Source: an uncultured Bacteroidota bacterium
GTDB taxonomy: Bacteria; Bacteroidota; Ignavibacteria; UBA10030; UBA6906
NCBI GenBank assembly: GCA_963700635.1
Contig: CAVOYH010000002.1
Span: 96,001 to 160,000, forward strand
DNA length: 64,000 bases
Direction of reading: 5' to 3'
Made by a program: the position numbers and the translations under genes. Under the pieces are notes generated by a model. The model was given only the letters and a program-made list of their open reading frames with translations, was not told the origin of the DNA and made no database searches. Shown piece by piece: positions 19,403 through 48,793 of the stretch (position 1 is its first letter; every line of letters starts with the position of its first letter).

Positions 19403-19475
<73 letters not shown>

Positions 19476-21078: not shown

Positions 21079-21114
21079 ATGATGGAGGGACCCTTGAGTC
21101 CCTCCATCATTTTT
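21079..21114 (+). terminator. Rho-independent terminator (target of the IIC intron)
   Basis: 13-bp stem ATGATGGAGGGAC/GTCCCTCCATCAT plus T-run. Confidence 0.85.
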
Positions 21115-22630
21115 GTGTTGTGAGGAGCGAGGCAAAACGCTGGCCTGACGAACAGGAAGCACATACGAGGCGACCGTAGCGGATGAGAAGGCCAATATCT
21201 TCAAAGTCCAATACCTGCACGGCAGCTACGGGCGTAGATGTGACAGGCATAAGCGGGAAAGTGGGTGCGCATTACCCGGGGAGATCTGCTCTCTGGCCAT
21301 GAGCTACCGTCGTTGCAAGGCGATGGGAGAGGAGAGCAGAAGTCAGCAAAGGGCATAGTAGGTCATGCGACCAGTGGCTGAAGGCCCGAACATAAAGAGG
21401 AAGGCAAGATCCTTCCCTTTCGATGACGCAGGAGACGCAGACAGTATGACTGAGAAGTCCGAGGCCGACTATCGCAATACTCGCCGGAAGCGGGGTGAGC
21501 GGAGTGCTGGCGCGTCAAACGTCACGGCAAGGGAAGAAACGTCGAGCCCAGAGGGGACGGCGCTCATGGAGGCAGTAGTCGCGCGGAAGAACATGACGCG
21601 GGCGTATGCCCGCGTGATACAGAATAAGGGAGCGGCTGGAGCGGATGCGATGACGGTGGAGGAGCTGCAACCGTATCTGCGAGATCACTGGGAAGGCATT
21701 AAGAAGGAACTGCTGGAAGGGAGCTACAGACCACAGGCAGTACGGAAGGTGGAAATCCCCAAGCCCGGAGGCGGCACAAGGATGCTTGGGATACCGACCG
21801 TTGTGGACCGTCTCATCCAGCAGGCGCTGCATCAGGTGATGACGGCAATCTTTGACAGACACTTTTCCACGTCGAGCTATGGCTTCCGCGAGGGCAGAAG
21901 CGCGCACCAGGCGGTAACACAGGCGCGACGCCACGTGGCAGAAGGGAAGCGGTGGGTTGTAGACATCGACTTGGAAAAGTTCTTCGACCGTGTCAACCAC
22001 GACGTGTTGATGTCGAGAGTAGCCCGCCGGGTACAGGACAAGCGCGTGCTCAGGGTGATACGGCGCTATCTGCAAGCGGGGATGATGTCCGATGGGATAG
22101 TGGCAGTGCGCACGGAGGGGACACCGCAAGGAGGTCCACTCTCACCGCTGTTGTCGAACATTCTGCTGGACGATCTGGACAAGGAACTGGAGAGACGCGG
22201 TCACGCGTTCTGCCGGTATGCCGACGACTGCAACGTATACGTGCGGTCACGGATAGCCGGAGAGCGTGTCATGACTTCGCTGAAACAGTTCCTTGACAAG
22301 CATCTCCGATTACGGGTCAACGAAGCGAAGAGCGCTGTCGGACGTCCATGGCAACGGACGTTCCTTGGCTACTCCATGACCGTCCATCGGAAACCGAGGC
22401 TGACTGTGGCCGCGAGTTCACGAGATAGGCTCAAGGAGAAGGTCCGGGAACTCTTGCGCCGGGGGCGTGGACAGAGCGTTGGGCAGGTCATCAAGGAACT
22501 CCAGCCACTTCTTCGGGGCTGGATCGCGTACTTCAAGCTTGCGGAGGCAAGGAAAACCTTCGAGGAACTCGATGGATGGATACGGCGGAAGCTGCGCTGT
22601 GTGTTATGGCGGCAGTGGAAGCGGGTCTAC
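21115..22630 (+). mobile_element. Class IIC group II intron remnant, truncated at both ends
   Basis: IIC-like ribozyme segments (GGCAAAACGCTGGCCTGACGAACAGGAAGC; TTACCCGGGGAGATCTG...CAGAAGTCAGC...CATAGTAG...GAAGGCCCGAAC) directly after a terminator. No GUGYG start and no domain V/VI. Confidence 0.85.
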
Positions 22631-41114: not shown

Positions 41115-41694
41115 CTCCTTCGGACTGTTGCAGGATGAATTCCACAGCTTCGACGACGGACGGCCTCACGGCGTCCGGCGTGAGGCCGGTTGATTGGCAC
41201 TCCTGGAGTGCCGATGGGCCGTACCCGGTGAGCACGAGCACAGTGCGTGCGCCTGCCGCGAGACCGGCCTTCATATCCGCCACTTTATCCCCCACGACAA
41301 ATGCCCGGCGGGGGTTCACCGGAAAATCCTCCATCGCCCGGCGGAGCATGCCGGTCTGCGGTTTGCGGCATTCGCAGCTCATCGTGTACGGCGATTTGCC
41401 AATGGTCGGGTGGTGGGGGCAATAGTAAATCCTGTCGAGGCGGGCGTGGTCACGGGCCAGCTCAGTCTCCAGGCGCTGATGGATCGGAACAAGGTCCGCT
41501 TCGCTGAAGAGTTCGCGTGCGACACCGGACTGATTCGAAACCACAAAAACAAGAAAGTCGCGCTCGTTCAGGGCACGGATCGCCTTTCCGGCGCCGGGGA
41601 TCATCTGGAGGCCCGCGGCATTCCGCAGGTACCCCACATCTTCGATCAACGTTCCGTCTCTGTCAAAGAAGACGGCAGCACGTCCATCCCTCAC
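41095..41694 (-). CDS. gmhB: D-glycero-D-manno-heptose 1,7-bisphosphate phosphatase (HAD)
   Basis: FDRDGT, SNQSG, CPHHP, CECRKP, VGDK; GTG start overlaps the glgA stop. Confidence 0.88.
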   Translation of the reverse strand: MRDGRAAVFFDRDGTLIEDVGYLRNAAGLQMIPGAGKAIRALNERDFLVFVVSNQSGVARELFSEADLVPIHQRLETELARDHARLDRIYYCPHHPTIGKSPYTMSCECRKPQTGMLRRAMEDFPVNPRRAFVVGDKVADMKAGLAAGARTVLVLTGYGPSALQECQSTGLTPDAVRPSVVEAVEFILQQSEGDVHYHA

Positions 41695-43175
41695 TTTCGT
41701 GCGAGGCTCCTGTACAGCTGAATATACTTGCGGGCCGATGCTTCCCACGAGAAGTCTTTGGCCATGCCGTTTTTTATGAGCTTGCGCCATGCGGCGCTGT
41801 CTGCGTAGAGTGCGACGGCACGCTGCACAGTCTTCAACAGCGCGCTCCCCTCGTATTCGGTAAATTTGAATCCGGTGCCGGTACCCGCCGCCGGGTGAAA
41901 CTCCTCAACCGTATCATCAAGTCCGCCTGTCGCCCGCACGACGGGTGCAGTGCCGTACCGCATGCTGTAGATCTGATTAAGGCCGCACGGCTCATAACGG
42001 GAGGGCATAAGAAACATGTCGCTTCCTGCTTCGATGAGGTGGGCCAGATTGTTGTCGAATGTCAACGAGATGCCGACCTGCTGAGGATATTTCCGGGCGG
42101 CCTTTTCAAAGAGCACATGATACTTCTTTTCCCCCGTTCCCAGTACAACCAGCTGGACCTGCAGCTTCATCAGGTCATCAAGAGTCTCCCCGATAAGATC
42201 AAACCCCTTCTGATCCGCAAGTCGGGAGATGATGCCGATCACCGGCGTACGTTCCTGAAACGGGAGTCCGACTTTTGTGAGCAGGGCTTTTTTGTTTTCC
42301 ACCTTCAAGTCGATGGACCGGGCATCATATCGTTGAGGGATCAGCGTATCCACAGCCGGATCCCATACGGTATAGTCGGCACCGTTGAGGATGCCGGTGA
42401 GATCATGTTTTCGTTTTTCGAGGACCCCCTGAAGCCCGCAACCGAGCTCATCGGAACTGCGGATTTCCTTGGCGTAGCGTTCGCTCACGGTCGTCAGGGC
42501 GTCCGCGTGGATCAGACCCGCCTTGAGGAAATTCAGACTTCCATGAGCCATCACCCCGTGCTCTGTATGTTGCTCTGCGGGGAGAAGGGTGTGTGCAAGT
42601 GAGGCACGGGGAAAGACTCCCTGATACGCCATGTTGTGAATCGTGAAGACGGTTTTCGTGTCCTTGTAGAAGGGGTCGTCCTTGTAAAGCGTCTTGAGGT
42701 AGGCCGGAACCAGCCCTGTGGGCCAATCGTTGCAGTGAATGATGTCCGGCTGCCATCCAAGCTTTTTGAGAACCTCGAGTACCCCGCGGTTGAAAAAGGT
42801 GAAGCGGACGTCGTTGTCCGGAAAGTCCTTGTTTGTGTCGGGGTGCACATACAGCCCCTGCCGGCCAAAAAGCGTCGGGTTGTCAAGGAGATAGGTCTGA
42901 ACCTTGATCTGAGCGTTCGTAAGGAATGAAGATTTGACATTGGCGGTGAAGTGGCGGGTTCCCACCGGGATCTCAATATCCTTCAGCCGGATCATGTCAT
43001 GAAGCCGTGCCTTGCGTTCGTTGATGCTTCCATACCGGGGGAGCATCACACGGATTTCGTGATCAAGCTGGCGGATAACCTGGGGGAGTGCGCTGGAGAC
43101 GTCGGCCAGACCACCCGTTTTTGCGAATGGTTCCACCTCACTGGAGATGAATAGGACGTTAAGAGGACGGGGCAT
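41691..43175 (-). CDS. glgA: Glycogen/starch synthase (GT5)
   Basis: KTGGLADV, HCNDW, TIHN, SRLADQKG, PSRYEPCGL. Confidence 0.95.
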   Translation of the reverse strand: MPRPLNVLFISSEVEPFAKTGGLADVSSALPQVIRQLDHEIRVMLPRYGSINERKARLHDMIRLKDIEIPVGTRHFTANVKSSFLTNAQIKVQTYLLDNPTLFGRQGLYVHPDTNKDFPDNDVRFTFFNRGVLEVLKKLGWQPDIIHCNDWPTGLVPAYLKTLYKDDPFYKDTKTVFTIHNMAYQGVFPRASLAHTLLPAEQHTEHGVMAHGSLNFLKAGLIHADALTTVSERYAKEIRSSDELGCGLQGVLEKRKHDLTGILNGADYTVWDPAVDTLIPQRYDARSIDLKVENKKALLTKVGLPFQERTPVIGIISRLADQKGFDLIGETLDDLMKLQVQLVVLGTGEKKYHVLFEKAARKYPQQVGISLTFDNNLAHLIEAGSDMFLMPSRYEPCGLNQIYSMRYGTAPVVRATGGLDDTVEEFHPAAGTGTGFKFTEYEGSALLKTVQRAVALYADSAAWRKLIKNGMAKDFSWEASARKYIQLYRSLARK

Positions 43176-43227
43176 GCCGCGCGAAAGCGAGTGGTCTGAT
43201 AGTGTGATTTTTCATTTTGAGCGTTGC

Positions 43228-43256
43228 AATGTAGCCATTTCCGTGCTGAGAATCAA
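43228..43256 (-). promoter_or_regulatory. Sigma70-like promoter of the glgA operon
   Basis: TTGATT-17-TACATT. Confidence 0.6.
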
Positions 43257-43283
43257 ATGATGTGTGCGTGAGCACATGACAAC

Positions 43284-43312
43284 TTGACAATTATGTGGGC
43301 AATGGCTATATT
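43284..43312 (+). promoter_or_regulatory. Sigma70 promoter of the porU leader
   Basis: TTGACA-17-TATATT. Confidence 0.8.
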
Positions 43313-43318
43313 GGTGCA

Positions 43319-43497
43319 GTACGATACACTACACATTGTGGAGCGCAGCCTATAGAGGTGTTTAGTTAAAGGTTGATGTACGAACTGTACGCAGGACGCG
43401 GGATCCTTTAACAGACATTCTATAACACGCTGGCGGCTCCATAAACATAGACCGCCGCCGAATGTTATGGAAGCAAAATAACGTTCGGTTTTTTTTT
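43319..43497 (+). ncRNA. Candidate structured leader RNA / attenuator (or sRNA) upstream of porU
   Basis: Rod-like hairpin 43336-43444 with G-U pairs, alternative antiterminator, and intrinsic terminator. Confidence 0.65.
43458..43497 (+). terminator. Intrinsic terminator between the promoter and porU
   Basis: CCGAATGTTAT/ATAACGTTCGG 11-bp stem plus T9. Confidence 0.85.
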
Positions 43498-43521
43498 GTT
43501 TACAGGAAGGGCAGTCAACAC

Positions 43522-46500
43522 GTGCGCGTAACGGTTTCCTGGATGGACTGGCGGTGGGTATGTGTGGCGGCGTGTGTTGTCTTCATGGTGGCAGGCACGG
43601 GAACCGTGTCGGGCGGTGAAACACCGGGCGACCTTGCGCAGTCACAACGGGGCGAACAGGACACCCGCATCCTTTCATATACCGCGCGGTCTGTGGTCCT
43701 CGAGTACACTCCTCTGTACACACACACGGATACCGTTCAGACCGGTCAGAAAACCTTTGTCCGTTTTGCCTTTGCTGGCTCCGTTGACGCCATGTCTCCC
43801 GAACGTGCGGGAGCGCCAGATCTCCGATATCGCCTTCTCCCCCTTGCCTTCCCCTCGGCCGGCGTGCATCAGGTGCGGCTGATCTCTTCTGATTATGAGG
43901 TCCTGGGCAACATCGACCTGCTTCCGGTTCCCAGAGTGCGGGTAAGCGACGGCATGTTCGAGGTCGCCGGGTACGAAACTGACCCCCAGCTGTACGGTCG
44001 CCCGGGTTTAATCCCGGACAACCCTGCGGACCTGACCGCACCGCAATTGGTGCGGAGCCTCCTGCTCGGCGGTGTTCGGCTCTGGCCTATCCAGTACGAT
44101 CCGGTTTCACGCACCGTGCGTCGCTCCTCCCGGATGGTGGTGGAAATTGAGTTTGCGCCCGGTACCGCGGTGCAGGTGGATGATCAGGATGTTCGATTGC
44201 TGGGGCCGTCCGTTGTAAACGAAAAAACACTCTTGTCCCTTCCGCGCCGCGGGCAGGTGTTTGCAAAATCGGCTCAGGTTTCAAGTGTGCTTGCTTCCGG
44301 GAATTGGTTCCGCATCCCGGTGACCGAGGAGGGGATCTACAGAATTGACGCCGCGTATCTTTCTGCGGCAGGTATTGCAGTCAGCAGCCTTGATCCACGC
44401 ACAATTCGCATCTATGGTAATGGTGGAGAGGAGCTGCCGGAAAATGTCACAGCCGCCAGACCGGTGGATCTTGTGGAGAACGCGATCTACGTTGAAGGTG
44501 AGGCCGACGGTCAATTTGGAACCTCCGACTACGTGCTTTTTTATGGCCGGTCACCGCGCGGATGGAAGTACGATGGCAGCGCGAAGACATGGCGGCACTT
44601 TATTAACCGCTACACGGAAACAAACTACTACTGGCTGACCTTCGGCGGCGCGAGCGGAAAACGTATGGCTGATGTACCATCGTCCACGGCACCGGCTTCA
44701 CTGGTCGTCGAGAAGTTTACCGACGGGGTCTTTGTCGAAGAAGAAAAAGTCAACAAACTGAGCTCCGGCAAAGACTGGTACGGTCAGTCGATCAGCGGCC
44801 CGAGTGGATCGTTCACGCACGTGAACATCCTTCCCGGTCTCGTGCCGAATGATATCATCAGGTACCGGTACACGCTCGTCGCCCACGATGAAACAACTCC
44901 CCGGTTTACCGTGACGGATGGCAGTACGACACTCGGAATCCACACGCTCCCATCCTCCTCCATGGCATATTATCTGTATTCGACCGCGGGGACCTTCGAA
45001 GCCACCGGGACGTCGAACGTGAACGCGAATACGAGCCAGTTCCATGTCGCCTACACCTCCGGCAGTGCCGCCTCAGAGGCGTGGATCGACTGGGTGGAGA
45101 TCCTGTATCCGCGCATGTTATGGGGTGTGAACAACAGTTTGCGGTTCCGCACGCCTGACGCGGATGGTATCGCGGAATACCGCCTGCAGCAGTTTACCTC
45201 GCGTCCGATGATCTTCCAGGTAACCGATCCCGCCAACGTGCGCCTGGTCTCCGGCGTAACCGGTTCGTATGCGTTCCGGGACACCCTGGTGGCCGGACGT
45301 GTATCGGACTACTGGGCAACAGCTGTGGGGGCCTGGAAGACTCCCTCTGCAGCTCAGAAGATTTCCAACCAGGATTTGCGGGGGTACAGTGCCGGTGCCG
45401 ATTTTATCATCCTCACGAGCTCGGAATTCCGTTCGCCGGCGGACCGCCTCGGGGCATTTCGTGAAAAGCCGGAGAATGGCGGCCTCAAGACACTCATCGT
45501 CGATGTCGCCGCGATCTACAACGAGTTTGGTGGCGGTTTGCCGGACATCACGGCGATCCGGGACTATCTGAAATATGCTTACGATACGTGGTCCCCGCGT
45601 CCGACGTTTGTCCTCATGTTCGGCGGCGCCTCTTTCGACTATAAGGGGATCCTTGGCGCCAAGTCAAGCTATGTTCCGACCTGGCAGAGTCCGGAGTCGC
45701 GTCACGACATCAACAGCTATTGTTCGGACGACTTTTTTGCGAAGTTTAATCTCGGAAATGCGCCGTCGCTGGTGCTTGGAAGGATCTCCTCGCGGACAGT
45801 CGCCGAAGCGAACATTGTTGTCGACAAGATCATCCGGTACCAGCAGGAGAGTGTGAATGACGCATGGAAGATGCGCATGCTCTATATCGGGGATGATTCT
45901 TGGACAACCGAAGGCGGCGACTTCCAGGATGGCACATTGCACAGCGATGACGCCGAAACGCTCAGCCTCCCGTTTTTCACGCCGGAAGAATTTGAGAAGC
46001 GCAAGATTCATATCGCGGAATACCCGACGGCGTTCACGGCACAGGGACGCCGGAAGCCGGGAGCGGCACAGGAAATTATTGACCTGGTAAATCAGGGGAT
46101 TCTGGTTCTTAACTACTCCGGCCACGGCAATCCGAACGTCTGGGCCCATGAACGGATCTTCGAAGTCACGACGTCCATCCCCCCGATGACAAATCGGAAT
46201 CGACTGGCCCTGTTTATCCTGGCGACCTGTAATTTTTCCCAGTTTGATGATCCGCGCAGTTATACGGGCGCTGAACTCCTTATGAACAAGTCCGATGGCG
46301 GAGCAATGGGCGTGATCTCCGCCTCCCGAAAAGTGTACGCTTCCAGCAATGCAAAGCTGAATCAGGGTACCTACCGGCGTCTGTTCTCGCGGGACGCCTA
46401 CAATCGTGTTGTGGTCGAACGACCGGCGACGGCGCTGTTCATGTACAAAGCGACCGGTGGAAATGACGACAACGATCAGAAGTTTTTCTTTATGGGCGAC

Positions 46501-47622
46501 CCGACAGTCCGCCTGGCCTATCCGCAGGGATACGCGGTGATTGACAGCATCAACGGAGAACGGGTCGACAGTGTCGGCGGAGTTCCGCGTCAAACCCCCA
46601 TTACCCTGAAAGCGCTGAGCCGCGTGACCGTGAGTGGTACCGTTCGGGATGCCAACAACACAACGGACGCCGGCTTCAACGGCGTGTTGCAGTTGCGGGT
46701 GAACGATGTCACCCGGCAACAGCTGATCGTCAACTTTTATCCGGGACGCAACTGGTCGTATACTTCAACCGGAGGGACAATCTACCGGGGCGACAACTCC
46801 ATAACGCAGGGGAAGTTCCGCGCAACCTTCGTCGTTCCGAAAGACATTTCGTACGCCGATACCACGGGGCGCGGACGTGTAGTCGGATATTTTTCAAACG
46901 GAGCCGCCGATGGCGCGGGTTTTACCGGACTGCTTCGTATCGGAGGGACTGATTCAACCGCTGCCAATGACGGCGAGGGGCCGCGTATGCGGATCTATCT
47001 GGGAACCCGCGGTTTCAGACCCGGTGATGTCGTCACCGAAAAACCGACATTACTTGTAGACCTACAGGACTCGAGCGGTGTGAACACATCGACAGCGGGT
47101 ATCGGGCACCGGATCGAGGCGTGGATTAACAGCAGCATTCAGAGTAAAGATCTGACCGAATTTTATACAAGTACACGGGACGATTTCCGGGAGGGTTCGG
47201 TACAGTATCAACTTGCGAATCTGCCCGCCGGACGCAATACGATCAGGGTCAGAGCATGGGATTCCTATAACAACTCGTCGGTCGAGGAAACCTATTTTGA
47301 TGTGGCCTCCTCGGACCGGTTGAGCGTCAGCAACGTGTTTAACTACCCCAATCCGTTTTCGGGCGAAACGTTGTTCACGTTCCGGCAGAATCTCAGCGCT
47401 CCGCTCGATGTGGAAGTAAAGGTGTATACCCTTGCAGGCAGGTTGATCCAGTCGATTCAAACGATCGCAAACGGAGAGCCTATGGTGCGGGTTCCGTGGG
47501 ATGGAAGGGATAGGGATGGCGATCTGCCGGCAAATGGTGTATATTTGTACAAGCTCATAGTACGAACAACGGACGGCAGGTTCGCCAGTGAAGCACTCGG
47601 CAAGCTGACGGTCCTGCGGTGA
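43522..47622 (+). CDS. porU: T9SS sortase PorU (C25 gingipain family)
   Basis: SSVLASGNWFRI, YGNGG, IYNEF, NYSGHG (His), ATCNF (Cys), AWDSYNN, NYPNPF CTD. Confidence 0.93.
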   Translation: MRVTVSWMDWRWVCVAACVVFMVAGTGTVSGGETPGDLAQSQRGEQDTRILSYTARSVVLEYTPLYTHTDTVQTGQKTFVRFAFAGSVDAMSPERAGAPDLRYRLLPLAFPSAGVHQVRLISSDYEVLGNIDLLPVPRVRVSDGMFEVAGYETDPQLYGRPGLIPDNPADLTAPQLVRSLLLGGVRLWPIQYDPVSRTVRRSSRMVVEIEFAPGTAVQVDDQDVRLLGPSVVNEKTLLSLPRRGQVFAKSAQVSSVLASGNWFRIPVTEEGIYRIDAAYLSAAGIAVSSLDPRTIRIYGNGGEELPENVTAARPVDLVENAIYVEGEADGQFGTSDYVLFYGRSPRGWKYDGSAKTWRHFINRYTETNYYWLTFGGASGKRMADVPSSTAPASLVVEKFTDGVFVEEEKVNKLSSGKDWYGQSISGPSGSFTHVNILPGLVPNDIIRYRYTLVAHDETTPRFTVTDGSTTLGIHTLPSSSMAYYLYSTAGTFEATGTSNVNANTSQFHVAYTSGSAASEAWIDWVEILYPRMLWGVNNSLRFRTPDADGIAEYRLQQFTSRPMIFQVTDPANVRLVSGVTGSYAFRDTLVAGRVSDYWATAVGAWKTPSAAQKISNQDLRGYSAGADFIILTSSEFRSPADRLGAFREKPENGGLKTLIVDVAAIYNEFGGGLPDITAIRDYLKYAYDTWSPRPTFVLMFGGASFDYKGILGAKSSYVPTWQSPESRHDINSYCSDDFFAKFNLGNAPSLVLGRISSRTVAEANIVVDKIIRYQQESVNDAWKMRMLYIGDDSWTTEGGDFQDGTLHSDDAETLSLPFFTPEEFEKRKIHIAEYPTAFTAQGRRKPGAAQEIIDLVNQGILVLNYSGHGNPNVWAHERIFEVTTSIPPMTNRNRLALFILATCNFSQFDDPRSYTGAELLMNKSDGGAMGVISASRKVYASSNAKLNQGTYRRLFSRDAYNRVVVERPATALFMYKATGGNDDNDQKFFFMGDPTVRLAYPQGYAVIDSINGERVDSVGGVPRQTPITLKALSRVTVSGTVRDANNTTDAGFNGVLQLRVNDVTRQQLIVNFYPGRNWSYTSTGGTIYRGDNSITQGKFRATFVVPKDISYADTTGRGRVVGYFSNGAADGAGFTGLLRIGGTDSTAANDGEGPRMRIYLGTRGFRPGDVVTEKPTLLVDLQDSSGVNTSTAGIGHRIEAWINSSIQSKDLTEFYTSTRDDFREGSVQYQLANLPAGRNTIRVRAWDSYNNSSVEETYFDVASSDRLSVSNVFNYPNPFSGETLFTFRQNLSAPLDVEVKVYTLAGRLIQSIQTIANGEPMVRVPWDGRDRDGDLPANGVYLYKLIVRTTDGRFASEALGKLTVLR

Positions 47623-47674: not shown

Positions 47675-48793
47675 ATGAAGACCAAGAATGTATCCAGCGC
47701 CATCGTACCGTTGCTGCTGACCATACTCCTCGTTGCCGGAGTCTGCGGTGAAGCGCGCGCACAGGGGGAGTCGGCCGTTCCGTTTCTGCTCATCGCGCCG
47801 AATTCCCGCGCTTCCGGGATGGGAGAATCAGGGACAGGCGTCGTAGACGATGCATCGGCGATATTCTGGAATCCCGCCGCCCTCGCATTTATGAAAGGGC
47901 AGGAAGTCAGCATCACGCACGCCAACTGGCTCCCGCAGTTTAACCTCCCGGATCTGTTCTATGATCATCTGAACTACCGGATGGATATTGATGCAATCGG
48001 AGGCACGATCGGCGCCAGCGTTACGTATCTGAGCCTGGGTGAATTTGCTGTGACGAATTCGTCCGGACCGACCGTGATCGACAAGTTTAAATCCTTCGAG
48101 TATGCCGTGACGGCCGGCTACGCCACAAAGGCCACGGATGATCTCGGGGTGGGGATGAATGTGCGGTTTATCCATAGCGCACTTTCGCCCATTGGGACGG
48201 AATCCGAACAGGGTAACGGAATCGCGTCCACGGTGAGCTTTGACCTTGCGATGATGTACCGGCCGCAAACGTTGAATGTTCCGCTGCTCGGCGATCTTGG
48301 CAAACGGTTCAGCTTCGGTGTGAACCTCTCCAACCTCGGACCAAAAGTCACCTACGTCGATGCGGATCAGGCGGATCCCCTGCCGACAAACCTGCGCGTC
48401 GGGATGGGATACAAGGTTCTGGATGATGAATACAACAGCCTGCAGATGGCGGTGGACTTCAGCCGCCTTCTGGTTCGCCGGCGCGAGGACCAGACCTCCG
48501 ATCCGTTCTACAAGGCGCTGTTCACCGCATGGAGTGACGGGAGCGGCATCCGGAAAATCATCGTAAGCGGCGGGGCGGAATACTGGTACGGATCACCGCG
48601 GCTCATCGCGCTCCGCATCGGATACTTCTACGAAAGCCCGAGTTTCGGAAACCGGAAATTCCTCACCTTCGGAGCAGGCATCCGGTACGATATCTACGGA
48701 TTCGACTTCAGCTATATTTCGGCGTCGGATAATCATCCACTTTCAGACACCATCAGATTTTCCCTCCTCATTGCCTGGGGAGGGACGGAGTAA
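47675..48793 (+). CDS. porV: T9SS outer membrane shuttle PorV
   Basis: AVPFLLIAPNSRASGMG, FWNPA, SNLGPK, PTNLR, GNRKFLTFGAG, HPLSDTIRFSL. Confidence 0.92.
   Translation: MKTKNVSSAIVPLLLTILLVAGVCGEARAQGESAVPFLLIAPNSRASGMGESGTGVVDDASAIFWNPAALAFMKGQEVSITHANWLPQFNLPDLFYDHLNYRMDIDAIGGTIGASVTYLSLGEFAVTNSSGPTVIDKFKSFEYAVTAGYATKATDDLGVGMNVRFIHSALSPIGTESEQGNGIASTVSFDLAMMYRPQTLNVPLLGDLGKRFSFGVNLSNLGPKVTYVDADQADPLPTNLRVGMGYKVLDDEYNSLQMAVDFSRLLVRRREDQTSDPFYKALFTAWSDGSGIRKIIVSGGAEYWYGSPRLIALRIGYFYESPSFGNRKFLTFGAGIRYDIYGFDFSYISASDNHPLSDTIRFSLLIAWGGTE

Follow-up and report, generated by a model that had tools for sequence, protein, structure and literature searches.

In a 64,000-nucleotide (nt) stretch of the genome of an uncultured Bacteroidota bacterium of the class Ignavibacteria (assembly GCA_963700635.1, contig CAVOYH010000002.1, positions 96,001 to 160,000; this whole stretch is hereafter the window, and all positions are counted from its first letter), an intergenic region (43176-43521) separates glgA from the divergently oriented gene porU, which is a type IX secretion system (T9SS) gene. 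In the window porU is followed by porV and by a gene for a T9SS sorting-domain protein. Between a sigma-70-type promoter and the predicted porU start, GTG 43522, the intergenic region encodes a structured RNA on the plus strand, and position, conservation and covariation agree on this placement, which had been put forward in an initial annotation of the sequence. The RNA is probably a 5' leader of the terminator/antiterminator attenuator type that heads the T9SS cargo-attachment operon across Ignavibacteria-type genomes.

The leader promoter, TTGACA-17-TATATT, lies where the initial annotation had placed it, agrees with the consensus at 11 of 12 positions and is the sole promoter-like site that a promoter scan returned within 42900-43800; transcription is predicted to start near 43318-43320. 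The plus-strand RNA from 43320 to 43500 has a minimum free energy (MFE) of -55.9 kcal/mol (z = -3.59), a stability reached by none of 200 shuffled sequences, compared with a weaker fold of -48.7 kcal/mol (z = -2.36) for the minus strand. The fold comprises a rod of about 110 nt (43336-43444), whose stems (43336-44/43436-44, GCAGC/GCUGGC, the UAUAGAG helix and GUUAAAGG/CCUUUAAC) reproduce those described initially; the apical TGTAC/GTACG hairpin that had been added to them can be drawn by eye but is not chosen in the MFE structure. The rod is followed by an intrinsic terminator, an 11-bp stem with a T9 tract ending 24 nt upstream of the porU GTG, again as annotated. An automated terminator scan lists nothing at this site; its stated loop limit of 3-8 nt leaves out the 9-nt loop. 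The frequent G.U pairs fit only the plus strand, as had been argued for the orientation of the element, and many of the conserved ones would become A-C mismatches on the opposite strand.

A blastn search recovered the intergenic region from 14 of 41 relatives, all members of the family labelled f1 here; all 14 regions are flanked by glgA and porU, and the promoter spacing is exactly 17 nt in each. Alignment of the relatives showed conserved blocks broken by a variable apex of 30-130 nt. From a plain MAFFT alignment of these 14 sequences, RNAalifold recovered the rod and the terminator with 35 pairs, 10 of them supported by compensatory changes. When 96 distinct sequences were aligned to a covariance model, 92.3% of cells paired, compared with 81.6% after column shuffling (reached in 0 of 500 shuffles) and 33-48% when the strands were slid by one to three columns, and 26 of 34 pairs changed on both sides. 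Rod and terminator thus covary, and the recurrence of this architecture in relatives, with covariation, makes it more than a product of chance. The most conserved bases are GGAG, UAUAG and UUCGUUAAAGGUU in the 5' strand, CCUUURAC in the 3' strand, and the terminator stem; the UAUAG block is kept across families, even in those without the rest of the element (f22 and f28). The stem sequence of the terminator is kept across genera and includes a conserved U.G wobble that fits the plus strand only (pair 303:358 is UG in 44, UA in 29 and CG in 19 sequences). Its stem energies range from -5.6 to -19.6 kcal/mol and are -8 kcal/mol or stronger in all but one sequence, and nearly all sequences show the canonical form of an intrinsic terminator, with 9-14 pairs in the hairpin and then 6-9 U. 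The features of the locus are collected in Table 1.

Table 1 Features of the porU leader and its neighbouring genes in the window.
Feature	Position	Strand	Evidence and remarks
glgA	41691-43175	-	Matches Glyco_transf_5; divergent from porU
Sigma-70-type promoter of the leader	43284-43312	+	-35 TTGACA 43284-89, 17-nt spacer, -10 TATATT 43307-12
P1/P1b 5' strand, including the conserved GGAG (43340-43)	43336-43349	+	MFE; model helices 1 and 2 paired in 88.1% and 88.7% of cells, all 9 pairs changed on both sides
Middle helix, 5' strand, with conserved (C)UAUAG(A) block	43350-43363	+	MFE, alignment
P2 5' strand, GUUAAAGG, the element's best-conserved block	43365-43372	+	Helix 4 pairs in 94.6% of cells
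Variable apex	43373-43404	+	30-130 nt in relatives; sequence not conserved (alignment)
P2 3' strand, CCUUUAAC (order-wide CCUUURAC)	43405-43412	+	Can pair with the P2 5' strand or with the terminator 5' arm and loop
Middle helix, 3' strand	43413-43427	+	43418-27 (UUCUAUAACA) complementary to 43463-72 (UGUUAUGGAA)
P1/P1b 3' strand, GCUGGCGGCUCCAUAA	43430-43444	+	MFE; GGCGGC 43432-37 can pair instead with GCCGCC 43454-59
Linker between rod and terminator	43445-43457	+	Sequence, alignment
Intrinsic terminator	43458-43497	+	5' arm 43458-68, 9-nt loop 43469-77, 3' arm 43478-88 (11 bp), U9 43489-97; helix 5 pairs in 95.9% of cells
porU	43522-47622	+	First gene after the leader; Peptidase_C25 with propeptide; PF01364, E = 3.3e-85
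porV	47675-48793	+	Next gene, same strand as porU; PF19572, E = 5.7e-37

The covariance model, R1, was built from the leader sequences found by blastn and has a single match in the window's own genome. It matched 60 of 68 family genomes, two of them with two copies, and 78 of 151 genomes of the order (f5 22/32, f2 7/11, f7 11/32, f8 5/31, f9 2/3, f6 1/4, f3 0/3, f4 0/3); at class level 11 of 151 genomes matched and at phylum level 7 of 151, with a single match, a weak one, outside the class. These large searches were run with strict filters and missed real cases, among them three carriers (G096, G089 and G029) in which direct inspection showed the element to be present. The porU gene itself occurs in 143 of 151 class genomes. 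Beyond the order, the distribution rests on the strictly filtered R1 searches, on one DNA-pattern scan and on direct inspection, in 44 class genomes, of the region lying upstream of porU or upstream of the gene that precedes it. By inspection, the element was found in f17 (4/4) and in another genus of f19, variants of it in f27 (5/5), f12 (3/3) and f21 (4/4), and diverged rods in two f13 genomes; f22 (four genomes) and f28 (three genomes) possess the 5' module alone, and no recognisable element was seen in the inspected DNA of f11, f14, f15, f20, f25, f29 and f30. The pattern scan of 185,579 species genomes returned 105 stretches, R1 giving 62 matches on the 80 of them that were listed, and the listed carriers are mostly labelled Ignavibacteria, Ignavibacteriales or Ignavibacteriota, or unclassified Bacteroidota metagenome-assembled genomes.

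A search with tblastn placed porU on the same locus as the R1 match in 62 of 65 and in 18 of 20 loci. Three of the five misses are contig ends (L055, L073, L080) and a fourth (L084) is a doubtful partial match of 77 nt. The informative case is L077 (f9; together with L245), where the first gene encodes a Wzx-like polysaccharide flippase (PF01943) and is followed by porV, and in f18 (L248 with L215) the leader precedes a Wzx-like flippase gene (PF01943) that runs up to porU. These gene orders indicate that the leader heads a flippase/porU/porV operon and is not bound to porU alone; its first gene is always porU, a porU paralog, or a Wzx-like flippase gene followed by porU or porV. In Porphyromonas gingivalis, PorS is the Wzx-like flippase for the anionic lipopolysaccharide (LPS) to which PorU attaches cargo, and if this role holds the gene set would be a coherent one. 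The upstream neighbour, on the other hand, is not glgA in several families where the element is still there, so that the element tracks porU rather than glgA. Second leader copies in two f1 genomes (G058 and G059) each precede a porU paralog, and in f19 (L082 and L083, i.e. G252 and G243) tandem porU paralogs each have their own leader, one leader lying between them.

In 82 of 84 loci a promoter of the form TTGAY-17-TAYNWT is found 10-40 nt 5' of the element; both exceptions are second, paralog-associated copies. Measured from the end of the element, the first possible start codon of a long open reading frame (ORF) falls at -5 to +78 nt (median 12 nt) and is at most 41 nt away in 81 of 82 loci. 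This distance leaves no room for a promoter 3' of the terminator, one of the arrangements that the initial annotation had named as refuting its proposal, and transcription of the operon must consequently traverse the terminator. The element is therefore placed as a leader is, 5' untranslated, on the strand of the gene, between promoter and first gene. On the glgA side of the intergenic region, the minus strand carries a promoter-like site for glgA (-35 TTGATT 43256-43251, 17-nt spacer, -10 TACATT 43233-43228), which falls below the threshold of the promoter scan; by eye, this block (43228-43256) is kept in the 14 intergenic regions.

As an antiterminator, the initial annotation had proposed a pairing of the 3' strand of the closing stem (43436-48) with the terminator arm and loop (43462-74). 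Such a duplex exists in the window sequence (-9.8 kcal/mol; with wider flanks -12.2 kcal/mol, z = -2.4, p = 0.01) but is not conserved: a duplex of the closing-stem 3' strand, linker included, with the terminator arm and loop outdoes shuffled sequences in only 9 of 95 cases, compared with 7 of 95 for a 5'-strand control (RNAduplex). One other family, f18 (L248), shows a pairing of this type, in which GGCUCCAU can pair with AUGGAGCC. What is enriched is a complementarity of the P2 3' strand and the bases following it to the terminator 5' arm and loop, significant (p < 0.05) in 42 of 95 sequences with a mean z of -1.87, against 7 of 95 for the 5'-strand control (RNAduplex); an earlier version of this test gave 34 of 75. 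Expressed as a fixed helix of seven pairs between CCUUURAC and the terminator arm and loop (columns 230-237 with 304-310), 79.7% of cells pair, compared with 30-45% when slid, and pair 234:306 is AU in 45, GC in 17 and GU in 4 sequences, with 19 unpaired. Furthermore, from family to family, changes in the bases flanking CCUUU are accompanied by changes in those that follow GG in the terminator loop: AGACCUUU is matched with AAAGGUCU in f17, CCUUUGAC with GUCAGGG in f5, CCACCUU with AAGGUGG in f6, and GGCCUUU with GAAGGCU in f8. When partners were swapped between families, native pairs averaged -8.62 kcal/mol and cross-family pairs -6.03 kcal/mol, native pairs being better in six of nine families (f2, f5, f6, f7, f8 and f9). 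In the window's genus the best partners are 43418-27 and 43463-72, a pairing with p < 0.05 in all nine genus sequences (L015-L023) and part of the MFE structure (-44.9 kcal/mol) of a transcript cut at 43477.

Given the observed structure, strand, conservation and covariation of the element, its position at the operon head and its excess alternative complementarity, the following mechanism can be envisaged. The near-consensus sigma-70 promoter would start a transcript of about 180 nt that folds into a basal P1 with GGAG/CUCC, a middle helix with UAUAG, an inner P2 (GUUAAAGG/CCUUURAC) and a variable apex, and the terminator would end a few bases 5' of the start codon, where polymerases transcribing porU must pass. 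The terminator 5' arm, together with the beginning of the loop, mimics the 5' strand of the rod and can therefore pair with the rod 3' strand. With the rod formed, the terminator would form and a short RNA would be released; with the rod 5' strand withheld or destabilised, the antiterminator would form instead and allow readthrough into porU and porV. Most sequences fold into the rod by default, so that readthrough would depend on some agent that keeps the 5' strand of the rod out of the fold or opens it up; a small molecule, a protein or something bound to the conserved 5' strand could act as this putative effector. The pairing of each segment with two partners would explain the sequence conservation of all four segments, while P1 and the apex covary freely. 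That termination is regulated, in which direction it switches and that an effector exists are predictions of this model. With respect to the riboswitch- or attenuator-like leader originally proposed, position, conservation and covariation thus support a terminator-based leader of the T9SS operon, and the part that is not conserved is the specific antiterminator.

Several observations weigh against this interpretation. In the fixed antiterminator helix the covariation amounts to one pair, and its 79.7% of paired cells is little more than the 77.2% after column shuffling. The register of the alternative pairing differs by family, and the pairing is not significant in f1 overall (33% of sequences), in f19 and in part of f17; in the swap test, native partners were not better in f1, f17 and f19. 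When transcripts were cut where the terminator loop ends, at least six arm bases paired upstream in only 25 of 75 MFE structures, the figure for shuffled controls being 22%, and shuffles gained the same energy (-3.9 vs -3.9 kcal/mol), so that the sequences alone do not show bistability. The alternative antiterminator formed with the P2 3' strand is thus supported statistically, not thermodynamically. As to the pair counts, fitting the alignment to the model structure biases them towards it, and related genomes cannot be treated as independent; despite both, the margin over the slid controls (92.3% vs 33-48%) is large. Six f1 sequences have a broken U-tract and retain the hairpin sequence, which may mean that the hairpin serves a role other than termination. 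In f27 (L209, L225-L228; 5/5) the basal stem of the rod abuts the U-tract directly and there is no separate terminator, an arrangement in which the rod would itself be the terminator.

The f22 (L219, L234-L236) and f28 (L220, L241, L242) variants are short porU leaders with the same kind of promoter, which contain only GGAG..UAUAGAG..UUUG and lack a terminator. Together with f27 and the sequences with a broken U-tract, they point to the 5' module as the part of the element that is recognised and to the formed rod as the state that terminates. The 5' module of two f22 sequences also reads as an ORF of 12 codons, the start codon of which is not conserved. A more far-reaching proposal, which we offer tentatively and hold to be doubtful, is that the conserved 5' module (AAGGAG, UAUAG 5-8 nt further on, and UUCGUUAAAGGUU) binds a signal of the cargo-attachment state and sets readthrough into the flippase gene, porU and porV. 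Candidate signals would be the lipid-linked or nucleotide sugar of the anionic LPS handled by the Wzx-like flippase, or the small ribosomal subunit acting via the Shine-Dalgarno-like bases. Such an element would be a new class of riboswitch or ribo-regulator with a new kind of ligand.

Searching 43150-43560 against Rfam 15 (4227 models, cmscan) gave no match at gathering thresholds, in accordance with the initial statement that no known riboswitch class is recognisable, and a single match at chance level with E <= 10 (SSRC34_2, 19.1 bits against a gathering threshold of 48, E = 1.1). Identification as a T-box was dropped for want of an Rfam T-box match, and CsrA-type GGA loops were dropped by eye, GGA being lost outside close genera. 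The signal recognition particle (SRP) RNA is excluded as an identity of the leader; the SRP RNA of this genome is encoded outside the window, at G000:C2:50214-50311 (RF00169, 58.6 bits). Elsewhere in the window, Rfam models identify group II intron domains (RF02001, 102.8 bits; RF01998, 58.7 bits) and a tRNA, at 21114-21386 (+) and 19403-19475 (+). Literature searches, part of whose matches were unrelated 'poru' words, found no description of an RNA leader, riboswitch or attenuator for porU or porV or for T9SS genes of Ignavibacteria, in agreement with the earlier remark that none is known for T9SS genes. The leader is best read as an undescribed family of a known kind of regulator, the terminator/antiterminator leader.

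The same data can be arranged differently. The element could be a stand-alone small RNA (sRNA) gene with its own promoter and terminator, acting in trans or as a housekeeping RNA such as a divergent 6S-like RNA, with porU expressed by leaky readthrough; we consider this unlikely. It would fit a promoter matching 11 of 12 consensus positions and kept in 82 of 84 loci, which is strong for the gene of a low-abundance outer-membrane protein, as well as the persistence of the terminator stem sequence even in the six sequences with a degenerate U-tract. With about 180 nt and the shape of a rod, the transcript also resembles a 6S RNA, and the 6S models RF00013 and RF01685 match nowhere in the genome; this absence is weak evidence, since the same search recovers 6S RNA in only 5 of 14 named control genomes. 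No 6S model matches 43150-43560 even at E <= 10, however, a hit that the initial annotation had foreseen as fatal to its proposal, and the rod has only small internal loops and no large central bubble, the 5' and 3' ends of the transcript do not pair with each other as in 6S RNA, and the last 45 nt form a separate hairpin; the identity as 6S RNA was rejected on these grounds. An independent sRNA gene also sits poorly with an element that heads the operon even where the gene upstream differs, is duplicated with porU paralogs and, with a start codon at most 41 nt away in 81 of 82 loci, leaves porU no room for a promoter. A whole-genome search for a trans partner, using complements of the P2 5' block, gave background only. 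The terminated leader could nevertheless act in trans as well, so that the sRNA and attenuator readings are not mutually exclusive. Improbable on present evidence, and a sub-case of the attenuator rather than in contradiction to it, is antitermination by a protein, in which an RNA-binding or NusG-like factor would act on the 5' strand (GGAG, UAUAG, UUCGUUAAAGGUU) or on the hairpin and the rod itself would sense no small molecule. Sequence conservation of the 5' strand beyond the needs of pairing, the persistence of the GGAG..UAUAGAG module in f22 and f28 without P2 and terminator, and the need for an opener where the rod is the MFE structure, as in most sequences, would all suit such a factor, and restriction to one operon is a pattern seen, in general, more with protein- or operon-specific control than with a metabolite riboswitch. 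No candidate protein was identified among the data, however, and no conserved regulator gene adjoins the element.

That the element governs stability or translation of the mRNA, with a protective 5' hairpin and with the hairpin and U-tract serving as a ribosome landing site or translational control, seems to us very unlikely. The U-tract abuts the start codon, many relatives lack a Shine-Dalgarno sequence by eye, and the six f1 sequences mentioned above retain the hairpin and not the U-tract, all of which it would accommodate; the 9-14 pairs with 6-9 U in nearly all sequences nonetheless form a canonical terminator, and the excess complementarity between rod and terminator arm would be left unexplained. 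Hardly credible is a leader-peptide attenuator that depends on ribosome stalling, or an inverted-repeat operator acting at the level of DNA. GGAG followed 5-8 nt on by AUA or AUC resembles, by eye, a ribosome-binding site with a near-cognate start, but no reading frame is conserved across the apex (frames 28/21/26), an ORF that reaches from one P2 strand to the other exists in just 18 of 75 sequences, and the AUG of f22 is AAG in f28 with the surrounding bases conserved, so the start codon is not conserved and the leader peptide was rejected. An operator would have both strands of the inner helix conserved in sequence, as is the case here, and is at odds with the conserved G.U pairs, the compensatory changes and the variation of 100 nt in the distance between the arms.

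The attenuator-type leader would have consequences for how the T9SS is viewed. Known T9SS control consists of protein regulators acting at promoters, to which an RNA leader with a terminator would add another layer, at the head of an attachment operon for the Wzx-like flippase, the PorU sortase and the PorV shuttle that is conserved across a class of mostly uncultured bacteria. The element is moreover a clean orphan RNA candidate, single-copy, in a fixed genomic context and with hundreds of natural variants, and the variants without a separate terminator or with the 5' module alone provide a ready mutational series for finding what is sensed. Should the 5' module sense the attachment state, no sensor acting at the RNA level would have been found before it for any T9SS.

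Four-segment attenuators, composed of anti-antiterminator, antiterminator and terminator, are known from the pyr (PyrR) and trp leaders of Bacillus subtilis. The porU leader resembles these in lying between promoter and first gene, in having its terminator just before the start codon and in possessing segments with two possible partners; it differs in that it has no sequence or Rfam relation to them and no evident leader peptide, that the alternative register varies by family, and that it precedes secretion-system rather than biosynthetic genes. With OFF-type transcriptional riboswitches it shares a covarying folded domain, conserved internal-loop bases and a terminator that overlaps a possible alternative pairing, whereas it is a simple rod with a variable apex and no multi-helix junction, is associated with one operon only, whose Wzx-like, porU and porV genes point to no candidate ligand, and in the cut-transcript test did not in general show two near-equal states. 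The resemblance to 6S RNA (RF00013; 6S-Flavo, RF01685) lies in the length of about 180 nt, the mostly double-stranded rod and the strong promoter, and ends with the lack of a model match and of a large central bubble, the ends that do not pair with each other, the separate 3' terminator, and the fixed position at the head of the porU operon, with which the element is duplicated. At the level of the secretion system, T9SS expression is regulated in P. gingivalis by the PorX/PorY-SigP circuit. In Flavobacterium psychrophilum, high osmotic pressure induces porU, which is listed under an extracytoplasmic function (ECF)-type promoter motif, and the parts of the transcriptome study consulted report this promoter and no RNA leader (PMC9723704). 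Expression of porU or the T9SS is thus regulated in these organisms as well, but by proteins at promoters, whereas the promoter of the porU leader described here looks constitutive and the putative control element is an RNA with a terminator.

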